From Bacteroidaceae bacterium (GTDB lineage Bacteria; Bacteroidota; Bacteroidia; Bacteroidales; Bacteroidaceae), in contig JAKSIY010000001.1 of the NCBI GenBank assembly GCA_024398535.1, positions 805 through 64,804 of the forward strand: DNA of 64,000 bases, written 5' to 3'. Shown here piece by piece: positions 3,684 through 47,183 of this stretch. The notes under the pieces were generated by a model. It searched no databases and had not been told where the DNA came from. It saw only the letters and a list, made by a program, of their open reading frames with translations. Numbering within the stretch: position 1 is the first letter of the stretch; each line of letters begins with the position of its first letter. Both the position numbers and the translations under genes were made by a program.

Positions 3684-4135
3684 GCGGAAATGGTCACGCA
3701 GGTGCAAAGAGATACCATTCGCACCCGGGAAAGGAGAAATCCAAAGCACCAGGGGCAGGACAAGGCCATACGCACCGGGAAAGCAGCGGAAAGGGCATCG
3801 CAGGTGCAAATAGATACCATTCGCACCCGGGAAAGGAGAAATCCCAAGCACCAGGGGCAGGACAAGATCAATCGCCCCGGAAAGGCCGCGGAAAGGGCAT
3901 CGCAGGTGCAAATAGATACCATTCGCACCCGGGAAAGAAGAAATCCAACGCACCAGGGGCAGGACAAGGCCATACGCACCGGGAAAGCAGCGGAAAGGGC
4001 ATCGCAGGTGCAAAGAGATACTATCAGCACCCGGGAAAGGGAAAATCCAAAGAACCAGGGGCAAAACCTAGCCTAACACACCGGACAGCATCGCCAAAAC
4101 GGAACCTGTCCCTCGCCAGGCGATGACCTGTCCCC
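3684..4135 (+). repeat. Mosaic repeat element. Head gcggaaatggtcacgcaggtgc, then about four copies of a 102-bp tandem repeat, then a tail with two GGGACAGGT direct repeats around the palindrome tcgcc-t-ggcga
   Basis: cgcaggtgcaaa recurs at 3697, 3799, 3901 and 4003, an exact 102-bp period. All six frames are open across it. The tail ends at 4135, directly abutting the MATE stop codon. Confidence 0.9.
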
Positions 4136-5463
4136 TAACCGTTCAGTTCGCGGATGATGCGGATGGCGAAGGGGAGGGCCAGGAGGAAGGTGCAGAGGTC
4201 GGCGATGGCAAGGGTGGCCTGCAGACCGGAGAGGCCCCAGATGCGGGGGGCGATGAGAATGGCGGGGTAGAAGAACAGGCCCTGACGGCCCATGGCCAGG
4301 ATGGTGGCCATGCCGGTGCGGCGGATGTTCTGCAGCAGCATGTTGGTAGGGGTGGTAAGGCCCACGAGTGGAAATGCTATGCACTGCCAGCGTAGGACAG
4401 TGGTGCCGATGCGGATCAGCTCTGGGTCTTCACTGCGGAAGAATGAGATGATTTCCGGGGCAAAGATCAGGCCAAAGATAGACATGATGACGATGCCGGT
4501 GGTACAGGTCCTGACGGTGAACAGAAAGGAATCCTTGACACGCATGTAGAGCTGTGCGCCCCAGTTGAAGCCGCAGACGGGCTGAAATCCCTGACCGAAT
4601 CCAAGGATGGTTGACATGGCGCACTGCATGACTCTTGACACGACGGCAAAGGCTGCCACGGTCGATGCCTCAAGTCCGGGAACGGCATAATGGACGGCTG
4701 CGCGGTTAAGGCACACGGCCGAGATTGCTCCAAGCACCTGCCTTGACAGGGACGGCAGTCCGCCCTTGACAATTTCCGTGTAGTTCTGCAGGGTGGGGCG
4801 GAACTTGCGCAGTCTGATGTGGACGCTTCCGTCAACGCTTGTGAACCACAGCAGGGTGCACCATGAGCAGAACTGGCTGATGAAGGTAGCAAGCGATGCT
4901 CCGCTGACTCCAAGCCCCAGCCTGTACATGAAGAGCGGGTCAAGAAGGACGTTCAGGACTGCTCCGACAATGAGGCCCACCATTCCGTACGTGGCATTGC
5001 CCTGCAGGCGCAGCTGGTTGTTCAGTACCATCTGCGATATCATGAACGGAGTGGCTATGAGTATGAACCTCAGGTAGCTGCAGGCGTGTGGAAGAATCTC
5101 CTGGGTGGAGCCGAGCATCAGCGACAGAGGGGTGAGGAAGATGAGCCCAAGAGTTCCCACAATGGCTCCAATCAAGAATGCGCTGAGGAAGCCTGTGGCG
5201 GCCATCTCTTCAGCCTTGTCATCCTGACGGGCACCAAGAGCGCGTGAGATGAAGTTTCCGGACCCGGAACCAAAGAAGAACCCTATGGCCTGGATGAAGC
5301 ATTGGTACGCAAAAGCAACGCCGACACCAGCGGTGGCGGCGGTACTTAAGTGACCAACGTAGTATGCGTCAACAATGTTGTAGATGGCCGTGACCAGCAT
5401 GCTGGTGATGGTGGGCACGGACATCCTGAGTATAAGACGATTGACCGGTGTGGTGGTCATCAT
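4135..5463 (-). CDS. MATE family efflux transporter
   Basis: The ORF track gives 4135..5535. I prefer the internal start MMTTTPVNRLILRMSVPTITSML... at 5463, which removes the overlap with the upstream gene. 12-TM MATE-like sequence. Confidence 0.85.
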   Translation of the reverse strand: MMTTTPVNRLILRMSVPTITSMLVTAIYNIVDAYYVGHLSTAATAGVGVAFAYQCFIQAIGFFFGSGSGNFISRALGARQDDKAEEMAATGFLSAFLIGAIVGTLGLIFLTPLSLMLGSTQEILPHACSYLRFILIATPFMISQMVLNNQLRLQGNATYGMVGLIVGAVLNVLLDPLFMYRLGLGVSGASLATFISQFCSWCTLLWFTSVDGSVHIRLRKFRPTLQNYTEIVKGGLPSLSRQVLGAISAVCLNRAAVHYAVPGLEASTVAAFAVVSRVMQCAMSTILGFGQGFQPVCGFNWGAQLYMRVKDSFLFTVRTCTTGIVIMSIFGLIFAPEIISFFRSEDPELIRIGTTVLRWQCIAFPLVGLTTPTNMLLQNIRRTGMATILAMGRQGLFFYPAILIAPRIWGLSGLQATLAIADLCTFLLALPFAIRIIRELNG

Positions 5464-5503
5464 CTCATACCGTTGCTGACGTTTCTGGGTGTCAGAAGCT
5501 CTG

Positions 5504-7207
5504 TCAGCAGCTGTATGCCTTTGCAGCTTCAACACTTGACTTCTCTATGAATGCGCTGTTTCTAATGGTTTCTGCCTCGGCATAGTCAACATAGATGCTC
5601 AGGCTGTTGCGCAGCAGCTCAGGATTTCTTGAAGCGTCACGCAGCAGCAGGGCACTCATTACTGAATTTGCTGCCATCTCAACCAGACGGCGGGCATGGA
5701 AATCAAGGTACTCCTGATCCTTAGCCTCAGAGACAAGCTCTATTGACTTCTCAAGAAGCTCTGTCATGGCGTTGATACGTGGCACGAATGCGCTGAGCTC
5801 ATCTGCAACAGGCTGCTGCAGGATATCCTGAACCAACTGGGTATAGACGTGGGTTGTCACGTAGCGGATTGCAGCTACAACCTGCAGCTGGGTGGTTCCT
5901 TCATAGATTGAGGTGATGCGGGCATCGCGGTACAGACGCTCGCAGAGGTAGTCACGCATGAAGCCTGAACCTCCGTGAACCTGGATGCAGTCGTATGCGT
6001 TCTGGTTTGCGTACTCTGAACTCATGCCCTTTGACAGTGGAGTCAGGGCATCGGCGATGCGGCTGTAGCGCTTGCACTCCTGACGCTCTTCTGGAGTCAG
6101 GGTACGCTCGCGTGCAATGTCCTCAAGTGCTTTGTAGATATCAACGGAAACTGCTGTTTCATAAAGCAGTGAACGGTTTGCCTCAAGCTTTGCCTTGATG
6201 CGGCTGATCATCTCTGAAACGGCCGGCATCTGTATGATAGGCTTGCCAAACTGCTGGCGCTCCTGTGCGTATGACAGGGCCTCATGCCATGCGGCATCGG
6301 ATATTCCGACACTCTGTGTGGCGATGCCAAGACGGGCGGAGTTCATGAGTGACATGACGTACTTGATAAGTCCCAGCTTGCGGCTGCCGCACAGCTCTGC
6401 CTTGGCGTTGCTGAAGACAAGCTCGCAGGTAGGTGAGCCGTGGATACCCATCTTGTCCTCAATGCGGCGGACGTTCACGCCACCGTCACGCTTGTCATAG
6501 ATGAACATTGACAGACCACGGCCGTCATGTGTTCCCTCTTCTGAGCGGGCCAGTACCAGATGGATGTCTGAGTCTCCGTTGGTGATGAAGCGCTTTACGC
6601 CGTTCAGGCGCCAGCAGTTCTCCTGCTCGTCAAAAGTGGCCTTGAGCATTACGTTCTGAAGGTCTGATCCTGCATCCGGCTCGGTAAGGTCCATTGACAT
6701 GGTCTGGCCAGCGCAGATACGTGGGATGAACTTCTGGCGCTGCTCCTCTGTGCCGAACTCGTAGATCGTGCCTGCGCAGGACTGAAGACCCCATACGTTC
6801 TGGAAGCCTGCATCGGCGCGTGATACCATCTCTGAGATTGCGCAGAAGACTGTTACTGGCAGGTTCAAACCGCCCAGGCGGCGTGGCATCTCAACTGCAG
6901 ACAGACCGGCCTGGTTGCAGATCTGCAGGTTCTGGGCTGTGCCCGGAGCGTATGTAACGCGGCCGTCCTGACACTTTGGGCCGGTCTTGTCAACGCCCTC
7001 TGAATTAGGGGCAATTGTATTCTCGCAGATGTCGCCTACAATCTCAAGAACCTTGTCATAGTTGTCCATGGCATCGGCAAAATCGGTTGGAGCGTAGTCA
7101 AACTTGTCTGCATCGGCATAGTTGCGCTCCTTCAGTTCTGCAACGCGCTGCATGAGCGGATGCTGGAGACGCAGTTTTATTTCAGGTGATTCGTTATACC
7201 AGTTCAT
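5504..7207 (-). CDS. Acyl-CoA dehydrogenase family protein (long form)
   Basis: 567 aa. ACAD middle and C-terminal domain motifs (TEPDAGSD, FITNG, YEGT). 4-bp overlap with etfA upstream. Confidence 0.9.
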   Translation of the reverse strand: MNWYNESPEIKLRLQHPLMQRVAELKERNYADADKFDYAPTDFADAMDNYDKVLEIVGDICENTIAPNSEGVDKTGPKCQDGRVTYAPGTAQNLQICNQAGLSAVEMPRRLGGLNLPVTVFCAISEMVSRADAGFQNVWGLQSCAGTIYEFGTEEQRQKFIPRICAGQTMSMDLTEPDAGSDLQNVMLKATFDEQENCWRLNGVKRFITNGDSDIHLVLARSEEGTHDGRGLSMFIYDKRDGGVNVRRIEDKMGIHGSPTCELVFSNAKAELCGSRKLGLIKYVMSLMNSARLGIATQSVGISDAAWHEALSYAQERQQFGKPIIQMPAVSEMISRIKAKLEANRSLLYETAVSVDIYKALEDIARERTLTPEERQECKRYSRIADALTPLSKGMSSEYANQNAYDCIQVHGGSGFMRDYLCERLYRDARITSIYEGTTQLQVVAAIRYVTTHVYTQLVQDILQQPVADELSAFVPRINAMTELLEKSIELVSEAKDQEYLDFHARRLVEMAANSVMSALLLRDASRNPELLRNSLSIYVDYAEAETIRNSAFIEKSSVEAAKAYSC

Positions 7208-8226
7208 TTTGTCAGGTTCTTATAGTGTGAGATGAGTTTTGGGAGGACATCCTCAACGCGACCGTTGATTACATAGTCAGCGATGCTGTTGATAGGAGCG
7301 TCCGGGTCACTGTTGATGGACATGATCATGCTGCTCTCCTTCATTCCGGCAATGTGCTGGATCTGGCCTGAGATACCGCATGCAATGTAGAGCTTTGGCC
7401 TTACGGTCAGACCAGTCTGGCCAATCTGACGGTCGTGGTCAGCAAAGCCGGCGTCAATGGCAGCACGGCTTGCGCCTACCTCTGCATGAATCAGGTCTGC
7501 CAGTGTGAATAGCTGGTCAAATGCCTGACGGCTTCCCATTCCGTAACCACCTGCAATGACGATGCTTGCCGAGTCCAGATGATGGGCTGGCTTTTCAACA
7601 TGACGCTCAAGAACCTTGATTGCCATGTCTGCAGCGCTTACGTAGTCAGCAACGTTGTGGTTGATGACCTGACCCTTGTAGGCAGCATCGCGTATCTCAC
7701 GCTTCATTACGCCTTCACGTACGGTTGCCATCTGTGGACGATGGTCTGGATTCACGATGGTGGCAATGATGTTGCCGCCGAATGCCGGACGGATCTGGTA
7801 GAGCAGGTTCTCATAGATCTTGCCGCTCTTCTTGTCCTCATACTCACCAATCTCAAGCTGGGTGCAGTCTGCGGTAAGACCGCTGCCCATGGCCGATGAA
7901 ACGCGTGGGCCAAGGTCACGACCTATTACCGTAGCACCCATCAGGGCAATCTGCGGCTGCTCCTCTGCAAAGAGCTTGCACAGGATTGCAGAGTGTGGTG
8001 CGGTTGTGTATGGGAAGAGTCCCGGAGCATCAAAGATGTGTACCCTGTCAACTCCGTATGGGAAAATATCACTCTCGATGCCTGCCAGGCCGGTACCGAT
8101 TACCAGTGCCTCAAGCTGGCAACCCAGCTGGTCAGCCAGTGTGCGGCCCTTTGTCAGCAGGTCAAGGCTTACGCCTGCAATCTGGCGGCCCTCAACGATT
8201 TCGCAATATACAAATAGACTGTTCAT
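7204..8226 (-). CDS. etfA: Electron transfer flavoprotein subunit alpha
   Basis: 340 aa. C-terminal FAD-binding ETF-alpha signature (PKLYIACGISGQIQHIAGM). Confidence 0.9.
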   Translation of the reverse strand: MNSLFVYCEIVEGRQIAGVSLDLLTKGRTLADQLGCQLEALVIGTGLAGIESDIFPYGVDRVHIFDAPGLFPYTTAPHSAILCKLFAEEQPQIALMGATVIGRDLGPRVSSAMGSGLTADCTQLEIGEYEDKKSGKIYENLLYQIRPAFGGNIIATIVNPDHRPQMATVREGVMKREIRDAAYKGQVINHNVADYVSAADMAIKVLERHVEKPAHHLDSASIVIAGGYGMGSRQAFDQLFTLADLIHAEVGASRAAIDAGFADHDRQIGQTGLTVRPKLYIACGISGQIQHIAGMKESSMIMSINSDPDAPINSIADYVINGRVEDVLPKLISHYKNLTK

Positions 8227-8229
8227 GGC

Positions 8230-9036
8230 TTATCCTATTGTGTGGTTATTGATGAGCTCTGTCATGAGTGCCTGGATGTCCTGGTCACTGGCAGAGAATA
8301 CTTTGCTCTCTTTTGCCTGGAAGCTGATGTTCTCAATCTTCTTTACCTTGGTAGGAGAACCTGCCAGACCGCACTTTGATGGGTCTGCATTGACGTCAGC
8401 CACGCTCCATGCGGTAACGTCGGCATTCTTCTTTCCCATTACAAGCTTGGCATTCCTTGGACGGCAAGGTGCTGCTGAGCCGTTTACGGTCAGTACTACA
8501 GGAAGTGGTGCCTGCACAGTCTCGATGCCTCCGGTGATGGCGCGCTTGACTGTGATTGTGTCGTTGTCAAGTGAGAGAATCTCCTCAACGTATGTCACCT
8601 GTGGCAGTCCCAGCTTTTCTGCAACCTGAGGACCGACCTGGGCGGTGTCACCGTCAATTGCCTGACGTCCACCTATGATGATGTCGTATTCACCGATCTT
8701 ACGGATTGCGGTTGAAATAGCGTATGATGTAGCCAGTGTGTCTGCACCGGCAAACAGACGGTCTGTAAGAAGGTAACCTCCGTCTGCACCTCGGAACATT
8801 CCTTCACGTACTATCTCCTTTGCACGCTCCGGTCCCATGGTGAGCATGGTGATTGTACTTCCTGGACACATATCCTTTAGACGCAGTGCCTGCTCAAGGG
8901 CATTCAGGTCTTCTGGATTGAAGATTGCAGGCAATGCTGCTCTGTTGATTGTGCCGTCAGCGTTCATTGCATCCTTGCCCACGTGACGTGTGTCAGGAAC
9001 CTGCTTTGCCAGCACAACTATGTTAAGTTTCTTCAT
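8230..9036 (-). CDS. etfB: Electron transfer flavoprotein subunit beta
   Basis: 268 aa. MKKLNIVVLAKQVPD... ETF-beta N-terminus. Adjacent to etfA and the ACAD gene. Confidence 0.9.
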   Translation of the reverse strand: MKKLNIVVLAKQVPDTRHVGKDAMNADGTINRAALPAIFNPEDLNALEQALRLKDMCPGSTITMLTMGPERAKEIVREGMFRGADGGYLLTDRLFAGADTLATSYAISTAIRKIGEYDIIIGGRQAIDGDTAQVGPQVAEKLGLPQVTYVEEILSLDNDTITVKRAITGGIETVQAPLPVVLTVNGSAAPCRPRNAKLVMGKKNADVTAWSVADVNADPSKCGLAGSPTKVKKIENISFQAKESKVFSASDQDIQALMTELINNHTIG

Positions 9037-9191
9037 TATGTTGTTTTGTTTTCTGAATATGGAGCAAAGTTAGGGTTAAATAGTAAGAAAAGGTATGACA
9101 CTTCTGGGGCAAGACTCCGTTTGTTGCTCACATTTTGAATTTTTGTGCATCAATTTATTCTGCAAAGCTATCTTCAAAATAGGTTTTTTGT

Positions 9192-9199
9192 TACATTTG
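9192..9199 (+). promoter_or_regulatory. Candidate Bacteroidetes -7 promoter box (TAnnTTTG) for the ATPase/DUF4435 pair
   Basis: tacatttg lies 15 nt upstream of the ATG at 9214. No convincing -33 TTTG was found. Confidence 0.35.
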
Positions 9200-9213: not shown

Positions 9214-10041
9214 ATGAACATGAATAAAGGAGGTTACATAAAGAGGATTGAAATAAAATCCATGTGGGGACACAAGCACATAGTCTGGGATCTCAGACCT
9301 GATGTGAACATTCTGAGCGGTATGAACGGTGCCGGAAAGAGTACCATTCTGAACCTTTGCGTTGACCAGCTGGACCGAATAGAGGCTGGTCAGGAGGCCA
9401 ATTCACCGGACAACGGTGTCAACTTTGTCTTCTCTCCTGAGGGGGCAGAGTGTGTGTCGTATGACGTGATCCGCAGCATCGACCGTCCTCTCATGAACAG
9501 CAATCTGCTTGAGAAGATGTCTGACCGTAACGTGAAGTCGGAACTTGACTGGCAGTTGTATAAGCTGCAGCGCAGATATCTTGATTATCAGGTGAATATA
9601 GGTAACCGTACCATCAGCATGCTGACAAGCGGTGACCCCGCAAGGATGGCTCAGGCAGCCCAGGAGGCCATGCCAAAGGCGCGGTTCATGGATTATGTTG
9701 ATGAACTGTTCCATGACACCGGCAAGAAGATTGTCCGTGACAGCAATGAGATTGTCTTTGACCAGTTCGGTACAAGGCTTCTTCCGTATAGCCTCTCTTC
9801 CGGTGAGAAACAGCTGCTGGTTGTGCTTCTGACGGCACTGGTTCAGGACAACCAGCCCGGTGTCCTGCTCATGGACGAGCCTGAGATTTCTCTTCATGTA
9901 GAATGGCAGCAGCAGTTGCTGCGCCGTGTGCGTTCTATGAATCCGAACGTGCAGGTCATAATGACTACACATTCTCCTGCCGTCATAATGGATGGCTGGA
10001 TGGATGCGGTCGTTGATGTTGCAGATATTACCGTGGAATGA
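9214..10041 (+). CDS. Compact ABC-type (AAA_15/21-like) ATPase, AriA-like
   Basis: Walker A GMNGAGKST, ABC signature LSSGEKQLL, Walker B VLLMDEPEISLH, H-loop TTHSP. Start taken at MNMNKGGYIKRIEI (the ORF track starts at 9145). Confidence 0.8.
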   Translation: MNMNKGGYIKRIEIKSMWGHKHIVWDLRPDVNILSGMNGAGKSTILNLCVDQLDRIEAGQEANSPDNGVNFVFSPEGAECVSYDVIRSIDRPLMNSNLLEKMSDRNVKSELDWQLYKLQRRYLDYQVNIGNRTISMLTSGDPARMAQAAQEAMPKARFMDYVDELFHDTGKKIVRDSNEIVFDQFGTRLLPYSLSSGEKQLLVVLLTALVQDNQPGVLLMDEPEISLHVEWQQQLLRRVRSMNPNVQVIMTTHSPAVIMDGWMDAVVDVADITVE

Positions 10042-11081
10042 AGAGACTGGTTGACAACGTAACGTCTCAATATGTTGAGGCCATGAACCGCCTGCGTCCA
10101 AAAACGCAGAGACAACGCATTGTGGCCTATGTGGAAAGCTATGAGGATGTGGCTTTCTGGCGTCTGCTCCTGGATGAGTTCGAGTCAGACCGCTACTATT
10201 TCCAGATTATGCTGCCCAACGGAAAAAACTTGACACGCGGCAAGAAGTCTGCCCTGAATCATCTTCTGGAAGGCGATGGGCTGGGGCAGTACATGATAGC
10301 CTGTGTGGACAGCGATTACGACTATCTGATGCAGGGGTCAACGCAAACCTCTGCCATGATGCTCTCAAATCCATACGTCATTCAGACCTTTGCGTATGCA
10401 ATAGAGAATTACCAGTGCTATGCCGGAAGCCTGAACCAGGTCTGCGTGCAGGCTACCCTGAATGACCGTAGGCTTATTGACTTTGAGGCGTATCTGGAAC
10501 TCTATTCGCGTATTGCTTTCCCGTTGTTCGCATGGAATGTCCTGTTTTACAGGAAGAAACTGCATAATCAGTTCCCGATGCAGGAACTGGACCGATGCAT
10601 CCGCATAGAGCCTGTTGACTTCAGGATGCCGCAGCTTTCACTTGACAGGCTCCAGCTTAAGGTGACCCGCAAGATAGATTGGCTGGAGAGTAATTTCCCG
10701 GAGCTGAAGGCATCGGCCGAGGCCCTTATGCAGGAGCTTCCGGAACTGGGCGTGACAGAGGATGCCACCTATATGTATATACAGGGACACCATTTCATGG
10801 AGACTCTGATTTACCGTCTTCTTGATCCTGTCTGCACGGCTCTGAGACGTGAGCGCGAGATGGAAATCCAGCATCTGGCTCAGCATGAAGAGCAGCGCAA
10901 GAATGAACTCCGGGCATATGAGCACAGCCAGATTCCTATCCAGGAGGCTCTGGTAAAGAATACCCACTACAGGGACAGCGCTCCTTACCAGAGAATAAGG
11001 GAGCAGGTGCGCAGATTGGTGGAAAGTCTTGAAGGGGTGATTGTCAATGATGCTTCCAGAAACCAGGAGTCAGAAGGATAA
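10038..11081 (+). CDS. DUF4435/Toprim (OLD-family-like) protein, AriB-like
   Basis: 347 aa. Toprim-like acidic motifs VAYVESYEDVAFW and IACVDSDYDYL. ATGA start/stop overlap with the ATPase gene indicates translational coupling. Confidence 0.7.
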   Translation: MKRLVDNVTSQYVEAMNRLRPKTQRQRIVAYVESYEDVAFWRLLLDEFESDRYYFQIMLPNGKNLTRGKKSALNHLLEGDGLGQYMIACVDSDYDYLMQGSTQTSAMMLSNPYVIQTFAYAIENYQCYAGSLNQVCVQATLNDRRLIDFEAYLELYSRIAFPLFAWNVLFYRKKLHNQFPMQELDRCIRIEPVDFRMPQLSLDRLQLKVTRKIDWLESNFPELKASAEALMQELPELGVTEDATYMYIQGHHFMETLIYRLLDPVCTALRREREMEIQHLAQHEEQRKNELRAYEHSQIPIQEALVKNTHYRDSAPYQRIREQVRRLVESLEGVIVNDASRNQESEG

Positions 11082-12504
11082 GCACTGCAAAGATTTCAAG
11101 TCGTCCTATCAGCATCAGGGCAGCTGCCAGCCACTTTCCTACTACGGGGAGCACAGCCCATGAAATAGTCAGGCCCATTCCGCCTACGCCAAGTCCAACG
11201 TTGCAGACCGATGCCACTGCCGTGCCGTATGCCACATCCATGTCAAGTCCAAGTGCCATGAACAGAAGCCATGATACGAAGATGATTCCCACAAAGAACA
11301 TTGAGAATGACAGGATTGACTGCCTTGTTGATTGTGAGAGCACCTTTCCGTTCATGCGTACAGGAAGAATGGCGTTGGGGTGAAGTATTCGGTCAAATTC
11401 ATTGCGCATTATCTTTACCAGCACCAGTGAACGGACGCTTTTCATGGCACCGGTGGTGGAACCGGCACATGCGCCAAGGAACATGCAGAAGCCCAGAAGC
11501 ATCCAGAGGCTCTGTGGCCATAGGGTCAGGTCAGTAGTGACATATCCGGTGGTGGTGACCATTGAAATGACATGGAAGGCGGAGTGGCGCAGTGACTCCT
11601 CTATGCCGTAATCAGTTCTTGTAAACAGTCCTATGGCAATCGTTGCAATGAATATCAGGCAGGTGATGGCATACCATGCGAATTCCGTGTCATGGAGCAG
11701 GTTGCCGAACTTTCCCTTGAAAAGAGCCAGGTAAAGCAGGCTGAAGTTTATGCCTGACAGGAACATGAAAATCATGATGATGTACTCAGCCAGGGCAGAG
11801 TGTATTCCCTCAATACCGCCGTTGTGGGTGTAGCCTCCGCCGGTAGCAATGGTACACAGGGAATGGTTGATGCTGTCACACAGGCCCAGGCCGGAAACCT
11901 TCAGGGCAATTGTACAGGCAATGGTCAGTACGACATACACGGTGAGTATCCAGCGGCCACTGGTGCTTATCCTTGGGTGCAGTTTTGCGCGGGTAGGGCC
12001 AACCGCCTCGGCGGCGAACAACTGTACGTCACCCACTCCGAAGATAGGGAGTACAACTACCGTGAAGAATACGATTCCCAGTCCGCCTATCCATTCTGTG
12101 AAACTGCGCCAGAAGAGCAGTCCGTGTGGCAGGCTGTCCATGTCCGGGATTACCGATGCTCCTGTGGTGGTAAAACCTGACAGTGTCTCAAAGAAGGCAT
12201 CGGTAAAGTTTGTGAGAGTCCCGCTCAGCATGAACGGAAGTGCTCCGAACAGAGAGAACATTATCCAGCTGAGTGACACCACTACATAGCCGTCACGCCT
12301 TGAGACCATGTTCTCTTTGCCTTTCTTCTTTCCCAAAGTCACCAGGATCATGCCGGCACATGCCGTTGCAAGCGCCGATGCAAGAAATGCAAAGAAGTCT
12401 GTCTCTTTCAGAACAAGAGGTATGGCAGAACAGCCCAGAAGTATCAGTGCTTCAATCAGCAGCAGTGCTCCTATAATTCTTTCTATGGACCTGAAGTGAA
12501 TCAA
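11044..12504 (-). CDS. trkH: TrkH family potassium uptake protein
   Basis: 486 aa multi-TM protein with TrkH/KtrB selectivity-filter-like GFTTTGAS and TTTGY motifs. 4-bp overlap with trkA. Confidence 0.9.
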   Translation of the reverse strand: MIHFRSIERIIGALLLIEALILLGCSAIPLVLKETDFFAFLASALATACAGMILVTLGKKKGKENMVSRRDGYVVVSLSWIMFSLFGALPFMLSGTLTNFTDAFFETLSGFTTTGASVIPDMDSLPHGLLFWRSFTEWIGGLGIVFFTVVVLPIFGVGDVQLFAAEAVGPTRAKLHPRISTSGRWILTVYVVLTIACTIALKVSGLGLCDSINHSLCTIATGGGYTHNGGIEGIHSALAEYIIMIFMFLSGINFSLLYLALFKGKFGNLLHDTEFAWYAITCLIFIATIAIGLFTRTDYGIEESLRHSAFHVISMVTTTGYVTTDLTLWPQSLWMLLGFCMFLGACAGSTTGAMKSVRSLVLVKIMRNEFDRILHPNAILPVRMNGKVLSQSTRQSILSFSMFFVGIIFVSWLLFMALGLDMDVAYGTAVASVCNVGLGVGGMGLTISWAVLPVVGKWLAAALMLIGRLEIFAVLILLTPGFWKHH

Positions 12505-15833: not shown

Positions 15834-18299
15834 ATGACCTACACAATTGAAGATATTTCCAAGGTGATAGGGGCAACCAGGTATGGCCTCTGTCCTGCAG
15901 ATATAAGCTGGCTTCTGACAGACAGCCGTTCTCTCTGTTTTCCGAAAGAGACAATTTTCTTTGCCCTGAAAGGACGTCAGGATGGGCATGGCTACATCCG
16001 TGAACTGTATGACCGCGGAGTGCGCAACTTTGTGGTCAGCTATCTTCCTGACAGGATGGAGGATTATCAGGATTCGAACTTCCTGGTGGTCAGGAATACC
16101 AGGGATGCTCTCCAGAAATTGGCAGAATCCCATAGGAAAAACTTTGACATTCCGGTGGTCGGCATCACCGGTAGCAACGGTAAGACCGTCATAAAGGAGT
16201 GGCTGTATCAGCTGCTTGAGCCGGACCGTGCCGTGCCACGCTCGCCAAGGAGCCACAATTCCCAGATAGGCGTCCCTCTGTCAGGCTGGCTGCTCAACAG
16301 GCAGCCACAGCTGGGGATCTTTGAAGCCGGTATCTCAGAGCCTAATGAGATGCTTCCTCTTTGGAAAATGATCCGTCCTACCATTGGAATCCTTACTAAC
16401 ATAGGTCAGGCGCATCAGGGCAACTTCTCTTCGCTGCAGGAGAAATGTATTGAGAAGCTGAAGCTTTTCCAGGACTGTGACGTAGTGATTTATGACGGAG
16501 ACAACGAACTGATACAGGACTGCGTGAACAAGACTGTAGTCTCTGCCCGAGAAATTGCGTGGTCAAAGAAAAATCCTGAAAAACCTCTGTTCATATCAAG
16601 CATCGTCAAGATGTCTGACCATACTGTCGTTAAGTACAGGTACATTGGCCTTGAGGGACAGTATTCCATACCGTTTATTGACGAGGCATCTGTAGAGAAT
16701 TCCCTGCATTGCCTGGCCGTGTGCATCTATCTGCTCATGGATCCGGCTGTGATTGCTGAGAGGATGGCTATGCTGGAGCCTCTTGCCATGAGGCTTGAGG
16801 TCAAGGAGGGAAAGAAGGGCTGCATGATCATCAATGACAGCTACAATTCGGACATATCCTCACTTGATATTGCACTTGATTTCATGGCGCGCCGTACTGA
16901 TGACCGCATCCGTACCCGCACGCTGATTCTGTCAGACATACTGCAGACCGGCTTTACCGCCAAAGCGCTGTACCGGAAGATCAATCAACTGATAGAGAGC
17001 CGTGGAATAAGTAAGTTCATAGGCATCGGCCGTGAGATTAGCTCCGTGCCCAAGGTCTTCAATATTGACAACAAGCAGTTCTTTGAGACGACTGAGGAGT
17101 TCCTGAAATCAGAGGCGTTCGATGCTCTTCACAACGAACTGATTCTGGTGAAGGGTGCCAGGAAGTTCAACTTTGACCAGATTACAGACCGGCTGGAACT
17201 CAAGGTCCATGAGACCATCCTTGAAGTGAACATGCATGCCGTCGTTGATAATCTGAACCGTTATCGCAGCATGCTCAGCCCGGGCACGCGTATTGTCTGC
17301 ATGGTGAAGGCATCGGCATACGGTTCCGGAGCAATAGAGGTTGCCAGGACTCTGCAGGACCAGAAGGTTGACTATTTGGCAGTGGCAGTGGCCGACGAAG
17401 GATGGGAGCTGCGTCGTGCCGGCATCAGCACGAACATCATGGTGATGAATCCTGAGAGGACCTCTTTCAAGACTCTGTTTGACCATAAGTTGGAACCTGA
17501 GATTTACAGTTTCCACCTGCTTGAGGAGATTATCCGCGCTGCGGAGCATGAAGGAATAACTAATTTCCCAGTGCATATAAAGATTGATACGGGTATGCAC
17601 AGACTGGGGTTTGCTCCTGAGGATGTGCCGGAACTCATACAGCGCCTGCAGAGGCAGACTGCGGTGATTGCCCGTTCCATATTCACTCATTTTGTGGGCA
17701 GTGACAGCAATCAGTTTGACGAATTCTCTGCCCTGCAGATAGAACGGTTTGACAAGGCTGCCGGCGAACTGCGCTCGGCTTTCCGCCACAAGATAATGCG
17801 TCATATCTGCAACTCTTCTGCCATAGAGAGATTCCCTGACAGGCACTATGAGATGGTGCGTCTGGGCCTGGGCCTGTATGGCATAAATCCACTTGACAAC
17901 CAGCCGCTTGAAACAGCGCTGACCCTGAAGACTACAATCCTTCAGATACGAAACCTTGAGCCGGGCGAGACTGTGGGCTACAGCCGCCGCGGTGTCATAG
18001 AAAGACCGTCTAGGATTGCCGCCATACCGATTGGCTATGCCGATGGTCTGGACCGTCATCTGGGTAACGGCAATGGCTATTGTCTGGTGAATGGAAAGAG
18101 GGCACCGTACGTGGGGAATATATGCATGGACGTGTGTATGATAGATGTCACGGACATTCCATGCCGCGAGGGCGATGCGGTTGAGATTTTTGGCCCGAAT
18201 CTGCCTGTGCATGAGCTGTCTGACAGGCTGGATACCATTCCGTACGAGATTATTTCAACTATATCCACCAGAGTCAAGAGGGTGTATTATTCAGAATAG
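15834..18299 (+). CDS. Bifunctional UDP-MurNAc-tripeptide--D-Ala-D-Ala ligase (MurF) / alanine racemase (Alr)
   Basis: 821 aa. N-terminal Mur ligase (GITGSNGKT). C-terminal PLP alanine racemase (VKASAYGSG, ...GYADG...). Confidence 0.9.
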   Translation: MTYTIEDISKVIGATRYGLCPADISWLLTDSRSLCFPKETIFFALKGRQDGHGYIRELYDRGVRNFVVSYLPDRMEDYQDSNFLVVRNTRDALQKLAESHRKNFDIPVVGITGSNGKTVIKEWLYQLLEPDRAVPRSPRSHNSQIGVPLSGWLLNRQPQLGIFEAGISEPNEMLPLWKMIRPTIGILTNIGQAHQGNFSSLQEKCIEKLKLFQDCDVVIYDGDNELIQDCVNKTVVSAREIAWSKKNPEKPLFISSIVKMSDHTVVKYRYIGLEGQYSIPFIDEASVENSLHCLAVCIYLLMDPAVIAERMAMLEPLAMRLEVKEGKKGCMIINDSYNSDISSLDIALDFMARRTDDRIRTRTLILSDILQTGFTAKALYRKINQLIESRGISKFIGIGREISSVPKVFNIDNKQFFETTEEFLKSEAFDALHNELILVKGARKFNFDQITDRLELKVHETILEVNMHAVVDNLNRYRSMLSPGTRIVCMVKASAYGSGAIEVARTLQDQKVDYLAVAVADEGWELRRAGISTNIMVMNPERTSFKTLFDHKLEPEIYSFHLLEEIIRAAEHEGITNFPVHIKIDTGMHRLGFAPEDVPELIQRLQRQTAVIARSIFTHFVGSDSNQFDEFSALQIERFDKAAGELRSAFRHKIMRHICNSSAIERFPDRHYEMVRLGLGLYGINPLDNQPLETALTLKTTILQIRNLEPGETVGYSRRGVIERPSRIAAIPIGYADGLDRHLGNGNGYCLVNGKRAPYVGNICMDVCMIDVTDIPCREGDAVEIFGPNLPVHELSDRLDTIPYEIISTISTRVKRVYYSE

Positions 18300-47080: not shown

Positions 47081-47110
47081 CTTTCAAGCAGACTTTTATG
47101 CTTTTGATGT
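47047..47110. repeat. 64-bp near-perfect palindrome (31-nt arms) abutting the 3' end of tRNA-Arg; possible bidirectional terminator
   Basis: acatcaaaagcataaaagtctgtctgaaagc ta gctttcaagcagacttttatgcttttgatgt. Two mismatches between the arms. No flanking U-tract. Confidence 0.85.
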
Positions 47111-47183
47111 GACCCCGATGGGATTCAAACCCATGACCTTCAGAACCGGAATCTGACGCTCTATTCAGCTAAGCTACGGGGCC
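47110..47183 (-). tRNA. tRNA-Arg (anticodon CCG)
   Basis: Reverse complement GGCCCCGTAGCTTAGCTGAATAGAGCGTCAGATTCCGGTTCTGAAGGTCATGGGTTTGAATCCCATCGGGGTCA folds as a cloverleaf. Anticodon loop TTCCGGT. CCA is not encoded. Confidence 0.9.

Follow-up and report, generated by a model that had tools for sequence, protein, structure and literature searches.

The described system closest to the locus considered here is PARIS, a two-gene module in which the gene of an ATPase, AriA, is followed by the gene of a DUF4435/Toprim nuclease, AriB. The published rule for detecting PARIS asks for a gene matching Pfam AAA_15 (at least 32 bits) or AAA_21 (at least 27 bits) adjacent to a gene matching DUF4435 (at least 27 bits) (Rousset 2022, PMC9122126). 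PARIS calls are reported for ~20% of gut metagenome-assembled genomes (MAGs), mainly those of Bacteroidales (PMC10924106), and a call was recorded for Bacteroides fragilis NCTC 9343 (PMC13139388). In Escherichia coli PARIS, AriB docks on the head-to-head interface of AriA and is active only as a released dimer, which cleaves tRNA (PMC10802264, PMC11464382). The E. coli system is further marked by activation through phage anti-restriction proteins (Ocr), by cleavage of tRNA-Lys and by abortive infection. We analyzed a pair of genes of this kind, called A and B below, in a 64,000-nucleotide stretch of DNA from a Bacteroidaceae bacterium (assembly GCA_024398535.1, contig JAKSIY010000001.1, positions 805 to 64,804 of the forward strand; we refer to this whole stretch as the window). 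With modest confidence, we read the pair as a two-gene operon for a short ABC ATPase and a metal-dependent DUF4435/Toprim nuclease, a PARIS-family system of short-AriA type that is an old, vertically inherited resident of the chromosome.

In the list of open reading frames (ORFs) of the window, gene A occupied 9214-10041 on the plus strand (275 amino acids, aa) and gene B 10038-11081 on the plus strand (347 aa). The stop codon of A and the start codon of B were seen, directly in the sequence, to overlap in ATGA at 10038-10041 (plus strand). There was no second copy of A or B within the 64-kb window. As homologues of A are 272-275 aa long, the start of A should be the ATG at 9214 or the ATG at 9220 rather than the start of a longer ORF with GTG at 9145. 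Protein A matched AAA_21 (4e-22, 80.1 bits) and AAA_15 (2.3e-16, 60.8 bits); protein B matched DUF4435 along almost its whole profile (3.2e-45, 155.2 bits, profile positions 2-237 of 238). All three scores are clearly above the thresholds of the published domain rule and the two genes overlap by 4 nt; operationally, therefore, the pair is a PARIS.

The curated profiles of PADLOC gave the same answer, with an AriA and an AriB model matched side by side. Protein A matched the 'AriA' model PDLC04164 from end to end (6e-56, 188 bits, profile positions 3-251 of 253), while B matched AriB models and no others: PDLC02983 (2e-56, 190 bits) and PDLC04165 (5e-34, 116 bits). To represent canonical PARIS in sequence comparisons we used a pair on the Pseudoalteromonas plasmid NZ_CP045419 (our locus L161), whose AriB, encoded at 3794-4726, matches the solved AriB chain 8ux9_A at 6e-70. 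Since this AriB proxy has no PDLC04165 match, PDLC04164 and PDLC04165 can be taken as the database sub-family of the window pair, with the reservation that these are computational labels only. On the definition used by databases, the pair is a member of the PARIS (AriA/AriB) family, and within that family it appears to represent a distinct, Bacteroidaceae-centred 'short-AriA' sub-family.

The preliminary description of this DNA, made from the sequence alone, had given the same coordinates, ATGA overlap and flanking operons, had listed the motifs GMNGAGKST, LSSGEKQLL, LLMDEPEISLH and TTHSP in A and VESYED and DSDYD in B, and had identified an ABC ATPase with a DUF4435/Toprim partner; ORFs and Pfam matches bore all of this out, and every one of the motifs was present. 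Its suggestion of a minimal variant was right in substance; still, a short 'minimal' AriA is already modelled in PADLOC as the 253-position profile, and the form is hence only partly new. On the experimental side, the literature searched contained no test of a short-AriA system and no account of the missing scaffold or of vertical inheritance; it contained no papers on 'DUF4435' together with 'Bacteroides', and nothing relevant on core or vertically inherited PARIS.

Gene A (9214-10041, plus strand) codes for an ABC ATPase of the AAA_15/AAA_21 (AriA/PtuA-like) superfamily, of a short class, by the joint testimony of Pfam, PADLOC, an AlphaFold2 (AF2) model and Foldseek. The model (pLDDT 86.5, pTM 0.84) consists of an ABC head with one helical hairpin. 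AriA chains were its top Foldseek matches (E 9e-11, TM score relative to the query, TMq, 0.52-0.59), with PtuA chains close behind. The Walker A motif, or P-loop, GMNGAGKST (aa 36-44; 9319-9345, plus strand) follows the family consensus GvNGaGKST and is kept in 87 of 89 genomic copies. The ABC signature LSSGEKQ (aa 194-200), the Walker B motif MDEPE (aa 220-224) and the D-loop SLH (aa 226-228) lie together at 9793-9897 (plus strand), with LSSGE retained in 88 and DEPE in all 89 of these copies. The H-loop TTHSP (aa 251-255; 9964-9978, plus strand) is invariant in the protein alignment, and THSP is found in 89/89 genomic copies. Residues K42 of the P-loop and D221/E222 of Walker B are invariant; these match the catalytic residues of E. 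coli AriA that are needed for defence (K39; D392/E393).

Conservation is distributed unevenly along the rest of A. The most variable part, patch 1 (aa 51-80; 9364-9453, plus strand), has an entropy of 1.9-2.5 bits, compared with a mean of 0.96, and a ratio of non-synonymous to synonymous substitutions (dN/dS, computed throughout by the Nei-Gojobori method for 167 locus pairs) of 0.136. The AF2 secondary structure places the hairpin at 9541-9708 (plus strand), with helices at aa 110-137 and 142-165. Helix 1 is aromatic-rich (W113, Y116, Y122, Y125) and nearly invariant (entropy 0.17-0.31 for aa 111-130, dN/dS 0.003); it (aa 111-137) is the most conserved segment of the entire protein, and it lies outside the catalytic motifs. 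Helix 2 is variable (entropy 1.3-1.8 for aa 141-160; dN/dS 0.082 for aa 141-165). One could speculate that the four aromatic residues of the invariant helix serve as an alternative oligomer contact.

The operon order in the window, AAA_15/21 ATPase then DUF4435/Toprim protein, is that of PARIS from the P4-like satellite of E. coli B185 (PDB 8UX9, 8V45-8V49). In size the two ATPases differ considerably: AriA has 464 aa and A only 275, as the preliminary description had recognized when it proposed that A lacks the insertion and coiled-coil region. Alignment to AriA was possible for two blocks alone, A 9-50 (AriA 6-47) and A 194-270 (AriA 366-440); the C-terminal ATPase lobes are ~40% identical, and the residues between the lobes number 144 in A versus 319 in AriA. 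Profile-to-profile alignment of the A family with the canonical proxy pair L161 by hhalign covered only 73 C-terminal columns, with a probability of 98.7%.

A short ATPase of this kind is by no means rare. An exhaustive search of 1.84 billion representative proteins (E <=1e-30, clustering at 50% identity) produced 326 representative clusters of short or mid-length relatives of A, which fell into two size groups, one of ~255-290 aa, like A itself, and the other of ~300-350 aa. Among the best 150 of the 326 clusters none aligned in the manner of the 464-aa AriA; those listed with more than 400 aa matched over ~200-280 residues only. Given the 326 clusters and the existing PADLOC model, the short ATPase represents a large and old family and not a one-off truncation. 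In the 300-350-aa relatives the additional residues are N-terminal of query position ~80, approximately where A has its variable patch 51-80. These residues, seen in proteins P0249-P0300, point to a hot spot of domain gain or loss at the patch, and the hot spot is possibly a functional counterpart of the trigger-sensing insertion of AriA.

The product of gene B (10038-11081, plus strand) is a DUF4435 protein whose N-terminal domain is a Toprim nuclease and whose C-terminal domain is all-helical, as indicated by Pfam, PADLOC, AF2 and Foldseek. The AF2 model (pLDDT 88.6, pTM 0.86) has a Toprim core joined to a large helical domain. In the Toprim core (aa 26-126; 10113-10415, plus strand) are the acidic residues E33 and D37 (in VESYED), D91 and D93 (in VDSDYD) and E123 (in IENY), all five being invariant in 45/45 homologues; the Toprim motifs are present in 88-89 of the 89 genomic copies, which contain zero stop codons. 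Motif alignment pairs these residues with the catalytic E26, D30, D88, E90 and E122 of AriB (PMC11464382), the fourth position being changed from E90 to D93. The pairing was done by eye (AriB VEGRHD with VESYED, CDRE with VDSD, LENYF with IENYQ), and hhalign of the B family against the canonical AriB proxy aligned the first Toprim motif alone. The only meaningful fold match of B in the PDB was AriB 8ux9_A (E 3e-3, probability 1.00, TM 0.39/0.43, 10% identity); the second match had an E of 0.88.

The helical domain (aa 129-345; 10422-11072, plus strand), delimited with the AF2 model and entropy, has variable patches at aa 191-240 and 321-340, and by analogy with AriB (PMC10802264) we presume that it is the dimerisation and substrate-recognition domain. 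The helical segment 191-240 and the C-terminal tail, which overlaps trkH, are the most variable parts of B, with regional dN/dS of 0.13 (aa 191-240) and 0.26 (aa 321-347). Matches of the domain to GAS7 and YidC were rejected as coiled-coil noise.

The canonical AriB proxy had no Pfam DUF4435 match at E <=0.01, reached 39 bits on PDLC02983 and missed PDLC04165, compared with 190 bits (PDLC02983) and 155 bits (Pfam) for B. With scores so unequal, it appears that the window's family is the centre of DUF4435, the experimentally studied AriB being at the edge. By the same scores, the Pfam-based detection rule of PARIS suits the Bacteroidaceae-type family better than the experimentally characterized one.

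We next consider inheritance. A scan anchored on B, in which each GTDB species was represented by a single genome, found relatives of B encoded in at least 587 of these genomes; the best 80 loci were fetched. All named taxa among these 80 were Bacteroidaceae/Bacteroidales, including Phocaeicola massiliensis, P. coprophilus, Bacteroides and Paraprevotella. Gene A was directly upstream of B in 80/80 loci, at distances from -20 to +281 nt (mostly no more than 25 nt, +13 being the commonest); the -4 ATGA overlap was found in seven loci, the window included. One of the 80, on the 6.9-kb contig CAVBFD010000062.1 (L079), is binned as 'Candidatus Methanomethylophilaceae archaeon' and carries a typical Bacteroidaceae-type pair (57% and 50% identical to that of the window); most likely this contig is mis-binned bacterial DNA. 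The closest genomes in the species-level collection were horse-faeces and rumen Bacteroidaceae MAGs; as even their TrkA is only 77-79% identical to that of the window, the source species is not closely represented in that collection.

The pair in the window is flanked by minus-strand genes, identified by Pfam as MatE, acyl-CoA dehydrogenase, EtfA and EtfB upstream and TrkH, TrkA and DXP synthase downstream. The trkH ORF (11044-12504, minus strand) converges with B, and the 3′-ends of the two genes share 38 bp of coding sequence (11044-11081, both strands) with no terminator between them. In 48 of the 80 loci, one of them rearranged, trkA-dxs, mostly with trkH, directly followed the pair; TrkA in the trk-linked loci was 56-79% identical to that of the window. 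Metagenome contigs anchored on TrkA had the order dxs-trkA-trkH-B-A in 8/8 closest relatives (TrkA identity 74-76%), and the pair was absent from the TrkA junction in 47 informative TrkA-anchored loci of 19 lineages (TrkA identity 67-70%). The preliminary description had regarded conservation of the pair at this locus across the whole family as the sign of a core gene; such conservation holds for the window's clade but, because of these 19 lineages, not family-wide.

In Phocaeicola and Bacteroides the pair sits elsewhere. In Phocaeicola, Bacteroides and Paraprevotella alike, A is preceded by a divergently oriented EamA transporter gene; the order A-B-trkA-dxs is common to Paraprevotella and the window's clade; and, like the window, L026 and the Phocaeicola locus L071 have etfBA upstream of the pair. 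Thus, overlapping synteny ties the positions of the pair in these genera together. In seven loci (L049, L061, L062, L068, L075, L078 and L080, from Paraprevotella and other MAGs) the order was A-B-trkA-dxs; trkH, not detected in its place between the two, was lost or moved in such loci while the pair stayed beside trkA.

The upstream flank has a different history. The MatE-acd-etfA-etfB block of the window (4135-9036) is inverted with respect to many related loci, those of the L003 type (L003 1-4872), in which the order is etfA-acd-MatE-M20 peptidase-A-B; the M20 peptidase gene is absent upstream of A in the window. The opposite-strand arrangement upstream of the pair is due to this inversion. 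The upstream flank is prone to rearrangement and the trkH side is fixed. A positive B/trkH overlap was found in 43 of 47 trk-linked loci, and in 36 loci its length was exactly 84 nt, or ~28 codons per gene (in L003, 6982-7065). The 38-bp overlap had been reported correctly in the preliminary description and taken there as a sign of tight insertion; conserved as it is across the clade, it is an inherited feature and not an insertion scar. It is uncommon for so long an antisense coding overlap to be conserved, and the expression of B and trkH could be coupled by it.

Several other observations agree with long residence. The GC content of the pair (0.50-0.52) equals that of its flanks, and a compositional island was therefore rejected. 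For 54 loci holding A, B, trkA and dxs, the distances of A+B and of trkA+dxs were correlated with a Mantel r of 0.979, a value reached by 0 of 999 permutations; pairwise distances correlated at 0.95-0.97 among the genes (0.96 for A vs B). Relative to Dxs, A evolved 1.13 times and B 1.54 times as fast. In the five neighbourhoods scanned with Pfam (the window and four other loci) the neighbours were all metabolic, transport or regulatory genes, and no integrase, transposase or other defence gene was present. No viral relatives of B were found in 2.9 million IMG/VR contigs or in PHROGs, and the best Foldseek match in BFVD had an E of 0.34. We conclude that the pair is an old chromosomal resident, inherited vertically beside trkH-trkA-dxs or, in related genera, beside the EamA gene.

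The same genes are under strong constraint. Values of dN/dS were 0.045 for A, 0.059 for B, 0.039 for trkA, 0.054 for dxs and 0.075 for trkH; with dS near saturation (~0.9-1.3) the absolute values are approximate, though comparable across genes. No region of A or B came near a dN/dS of 1 at this resolution. Pseudogenised copies were not seen: all 89 genomic copies were free of stop codons, and loss of motifs was limited to one or two exceptions. Both predicted enzymatic activities thus appear to be kept under purifying selection of housekeeping strength. The account given in the preliminary description, of an accessory cassette inserted between housekeeping operons, did not, for this lineage, survive the equal GC content, the trk linkage, the Mantel r of 0.98 and this level of constraint.

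We propose, by analogy with PARIS, that the pair is most likely an ATPase-restrained Toprim RNase. ATP-engaged head-to-head dimers of A would dock B over the nucleotide-binding sites, where B would be held monomeric and inactive. A signal that alters the ATPase cycle, or that occupies the surface formed by the hairpin and the variable patches of A, would release B; free B would dimerise via its helical domain, and the dimer would cut RNA, most likely tRNA, with the two-metal Toprim site, leading to growth arrest.

A number of findings weigh against assigning the pair to PARIS in the strict sense. In AriA, the insertion IS1 (122-180) has a predicted part in trigger recognition, and a coiled-coil bundle is extended by IS2 (242-289) and has an aromatic face (F230, F234, F238, Y304); together these parts give rise to the A6B3 propeller and to the site that binds Ocr (PMC11464382, PMC10802264). 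Protein A has neither IS1 nor IS2 nor the aromatic face, and its AF2 model has a single two-helix hairpin in their place; lacking IS1, IS2 and the coiled coil, A cannot build the published A6B3 propeller, or sense through it, in the same way. Docking in E. coli involves salt bridges of AriB R28 and R31 with AriA D401 and E404 (PMC11464382). These residues are not kept: D401 and E404 correspond to E230 and Q233 of A, and R28 and R31 to Y35 and V38 of B (V or I in the family), the equivalence on the B side being given by the motif alignment only. Protein B is ~10% identical to E. coli AriB and is not detected from AriB by sequence or profile, so that Foldseek alone connects the two, and then at a TM of only ~0.4. 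No sequence link from B to the solved AriB was obtained with phmmer, whether with the full-length protein or the Toprim fragment (E up to 10); a profile of 45 B sequences gave no relevant link to AriB in hmmsearch, and hhalign against the proxy yielded a probability of 0.2%. The AF2 models of A and B rest on shallow, low-diversity alignments, and the near saturation of dS makes dN/dS approximate. E. coli PARIS is found in satellites and phages and at variable hotspots, whereas the window pair is chromosomal, vertical and constrained at housekeeping level; residence with high turnover in a phage, satellite or defence hotspot, one of the marks of PARIS, was not observed for it in the five neighbourhoods scanned. 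For immune genes the signature is atypical as well: even the presumed sensor has a dN/dS of housekeeping level, and turnover, a genomic-island setting and viral copies are all missing. The PARIS architecture put forward in the preliminary description was upheld, then, by the domain rule and the PADLOC models, but not by scaffold insertions, salt bridges or sequence homology to AriB. The system would differ from PARIS as published in having no IS1/IS2/coiled-coil scaffold and, to judge from the replaced residues, a different docking chemistry.

As to the biological role, phage defence by abortive infection is weakly favoured as the likeliest one, ahead of a host-directed role. Architecture and database precedent speak for immunity, while an evolutionary signature unusual for immune genes keeps a host-function or guard-type reading alive. 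The host-directed alternative holds that the pair is a domesticated ATP-regulated Toprim RNase engaged in RNA maturation or turnover, or in stress-triggered control of translation, and that the PARIS label is an artefact of the detection rule. We think this doubtful, although the list of facts it accommodates is long: dN/dS of A and B is indistinguishable from that of trkA, dxs and trkH; hairpin helix 1, where A is conserved most strongly (dN/dS 0.003), is outside the catalytic motifs; co-divergence with housekeeping neighbours spans genera, with 0 pseudogenes in 89 copies; genes of mobile elements and of defence are absent from the five scanned neighbourhoods, and relatives from the 2.9 million viral contigs, PHROGs and BFVD; Pfam DUF4435 is centred on the window's family, with canonical AriB at the fringe; and RNase M5, which matures rRNA, is the characterized Toprim RNase nearest to AriB (PMC10802264, PMC12409363). 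Against this alternative, the pair is not universal: 19 TrkA lineages do not have it at the junction, and its position varies between genera. The ~20% of gut MAGs with PARIS calls, mainly Bacteroidales, likewise suggest presence/absence variation (PMC10924106). A large group of defence systems is characterized by such an architecture, with an ATPase restraining a nuclease (PMC11464382), and a ligand that changes would be consistent with the variable patches on the surfaces of A and B. A related possibility, equally tentative, is that the 'PARIS' pairs which defence-finding software reports for a large share of gut and rumen Bacteroidaceae are not conventional mobile anti-phage cassettes: they would be either an ATP-gated Toprim RNase of ancient, vertical descent that serves the host (RNA processing, or a stress or translation checkpoint) or a 'guard'-type core sensor watching an invariant host component via the near-invariant hairpin helix.

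The remaining explanations we regard as less probable. That the pair is a selfish addiction module of toxin-antitoxin type, with B as the toxin, A as the antitoxin, lethality if A alone is lost and no benefit to the host, is rather improbable in our view. Canonical PARIS does act as a type II toxin-antitoxin, with AriB toxic and AriA neutralizing it (PMC10802264), and a tight operon whose two genes co-evolve would suit such a module. However, addiction leaves the toxin gene open to inactivation, yet the five catalytic residues of B are invariant and 0/89 copies are disrupted; a dN/dS of 0.059 for B requires direct selection for nuclease activity; and toxin-antitoxin modules are normally patchy and horizontally shuffled, unlike a pair that co-diverges with dxs at r = 0.98. 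Membership in another ATPase-nuclease defence family (Septu or retron PtuA-type, OLD/Gabija, AbiL) we consider very improbable. The Foldseek and PADLOC matches of A to PtuA are nearly as good as those to canonical AriA, and its best sub-threshold NCBIfam match is PtuA, but the partner decides: in PADLOC B matches only AriB/DUF4435 models, its only convincing PDB fold is AriB and not HNH (PtuB) or the OLD/GajA Toprim, and A itself scores 188 bits on PDLC04164 against at most 81 bits on any PtuA model. Least credible of all is that a compact mobile PARIS-like cassette was recently inserted between two housekeeping operons, a reading that the opposite strand of both flanks, the tight junctions and the defence-family domain pair could have encouraged. 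The pair shows no compositional anomaly and no integrase, transposase or repeat borders; the same B-trkH junction, with its overlap, recurs in dozens of species despite TrkA identities of only 56-79%; the pair is present in 8/8 closest TrkA-anchored relatives; and the strand arrangement upstream is explained by the MatE-acd-etfAB block being inverted compared with loci of the L003 type. Recent insertion is already refuted by synteny and co-divergence. The reading we prefer remains that of a vertically inherited PARIS-family system with a short AriA.

Comparison with other systems places the pair more precisely. The PtuA ATPases of Septu and of retrons (type I-A Ec78, Ec83 and Eco7) are of the same AAA_15/21 superfamily as A, match it by Foldseek at E 1e-9 to 1e-10 and TMq 0.45-0.55, near the AriA values, and likewise control a partner nuclease. 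That partner is the HNH nuclease PtuB, with a reverse transcriptase and multicopy single-stranded DNA (msDNA) in addition in the retrons, whereas here it is a DUF4435/Toprim protein. No reverse transcriptase or HNH gene was present among the annotated flanking genes, and B had no HNH match. Septu and retron PtuAB were rejected on these grounds and on the score of A with the NCBIfam PtuA model (69.7 bits vs a cut-off of 500), the best sub-threshold match in that collection; no NCBIfam model reached its own cut-off.

RNase M5 and OLD-family nucleases have in common the acidic two-metal layout of the Toprim active site, a likeness established through comparison with AriB (PMC10802264, PMC12409363); B itself gave no direct sequence or fold match to RNase M5 or OLD in the PDB search. 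In class 1 OLD proteins the Toprim domain is fused to the ATPase, whereas B has a separate ATPase partner and a large helical C-terminal domain. OLD/Gabija, defined by Toprim_Old (PF20469) with its catalytic Lys, was discarded, as B had no Toprim_Old, GajA or OLD match in Pfam, PADLOC or PDB folds. Like A, ABC heads of the Rad50/SMC type have N- and C-terminal lobes split by an antiparallel helical excursion, and A had weak matches to SMC_N, Rad50 and SMC6; the excursion in A, however, is only ~55 residues long, without the hook or hinge of Rad50/SMC, and DNA-repair partners are absent. A repair pair of the RecF/RecR kind was rejected too. An ABC transporter subunit was ruled out by an ABC_tran match of only 5e-7, well under that of AAA_21, by NCBIfam transporter models far below their cut-offs and by the conserved partner, which is a nuclease and not a permease.

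Upstream of A, a motif search found a copy of TAnnTTTG, TACATTTG, at 9192-9199 (plus strand), 15 nt before the start of A, which we take to be a Bacteroidetes-type -7 promoter element on the known Bacteroides consensus. The motif lies in a 177-bp AT-rich divergent intergenic region that A shares with etfB, where GC dips to 0.43; minus-strand copies facing etfB are at 9065-9072 and 9163-9170. In the whole window TAnnTTTG occurred 39 times compared with 25 expected, and 0 of 100 shuffles reached 39, an enrichment in keeping with DNA from Bacteroidota. With the motif standing just before the start of A, the pair probably has its own promoter in the divergent intergenic region. Scans for sigma-70 promoters, a type not appropriate for Bacteroidota, and for intrinsic terminators gave results at chance level. 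Between B and trkH in particular, terminator-like sites did not exceed chance, so that convergent transcription could run into trkH. Elsewhere in the window, directly downstream of dxs, an 821-aa ORF (15834-18299, plus strand) combines a Mur ligase middle domain with complete N- and C-terminal domains of alanine racemase, a fusion of MurF-Alr type. The sole Rfam match over the whole window was a tRNA at 47110-47183 (minus strand).

The locus thus flags a large uncharacterized sub-family that could not work exactly like the structurally studied PARIS and that evolves like a core pair. If this sub-family makes up many of the PARIS calls in gut genomes, these calls would rest on a form that lacks the defining parts of the published mechanism and that evolves like a housekeeping operon; they would in that case have to be re-labelled, and caution would be due with ecological conclusions based on them. 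As a natural minimal ATPase-restrained Toprim nuclease, the pair could help to separate the parts of AriA that sequester the nuclease from those that sense the trigger, and cultured carriers exist (Phocaeicola massiliensis DSM 17679, P. coprophilus). A candidate defence-type module fixed across genera would mean either core immunity or domestication. Should the host-RNase or guard reading turn out to be true, the family would be the ancestral heartland of DUF4435, and E. coli PARIS a derived, mobilised offshoot with added scaffold insertions.

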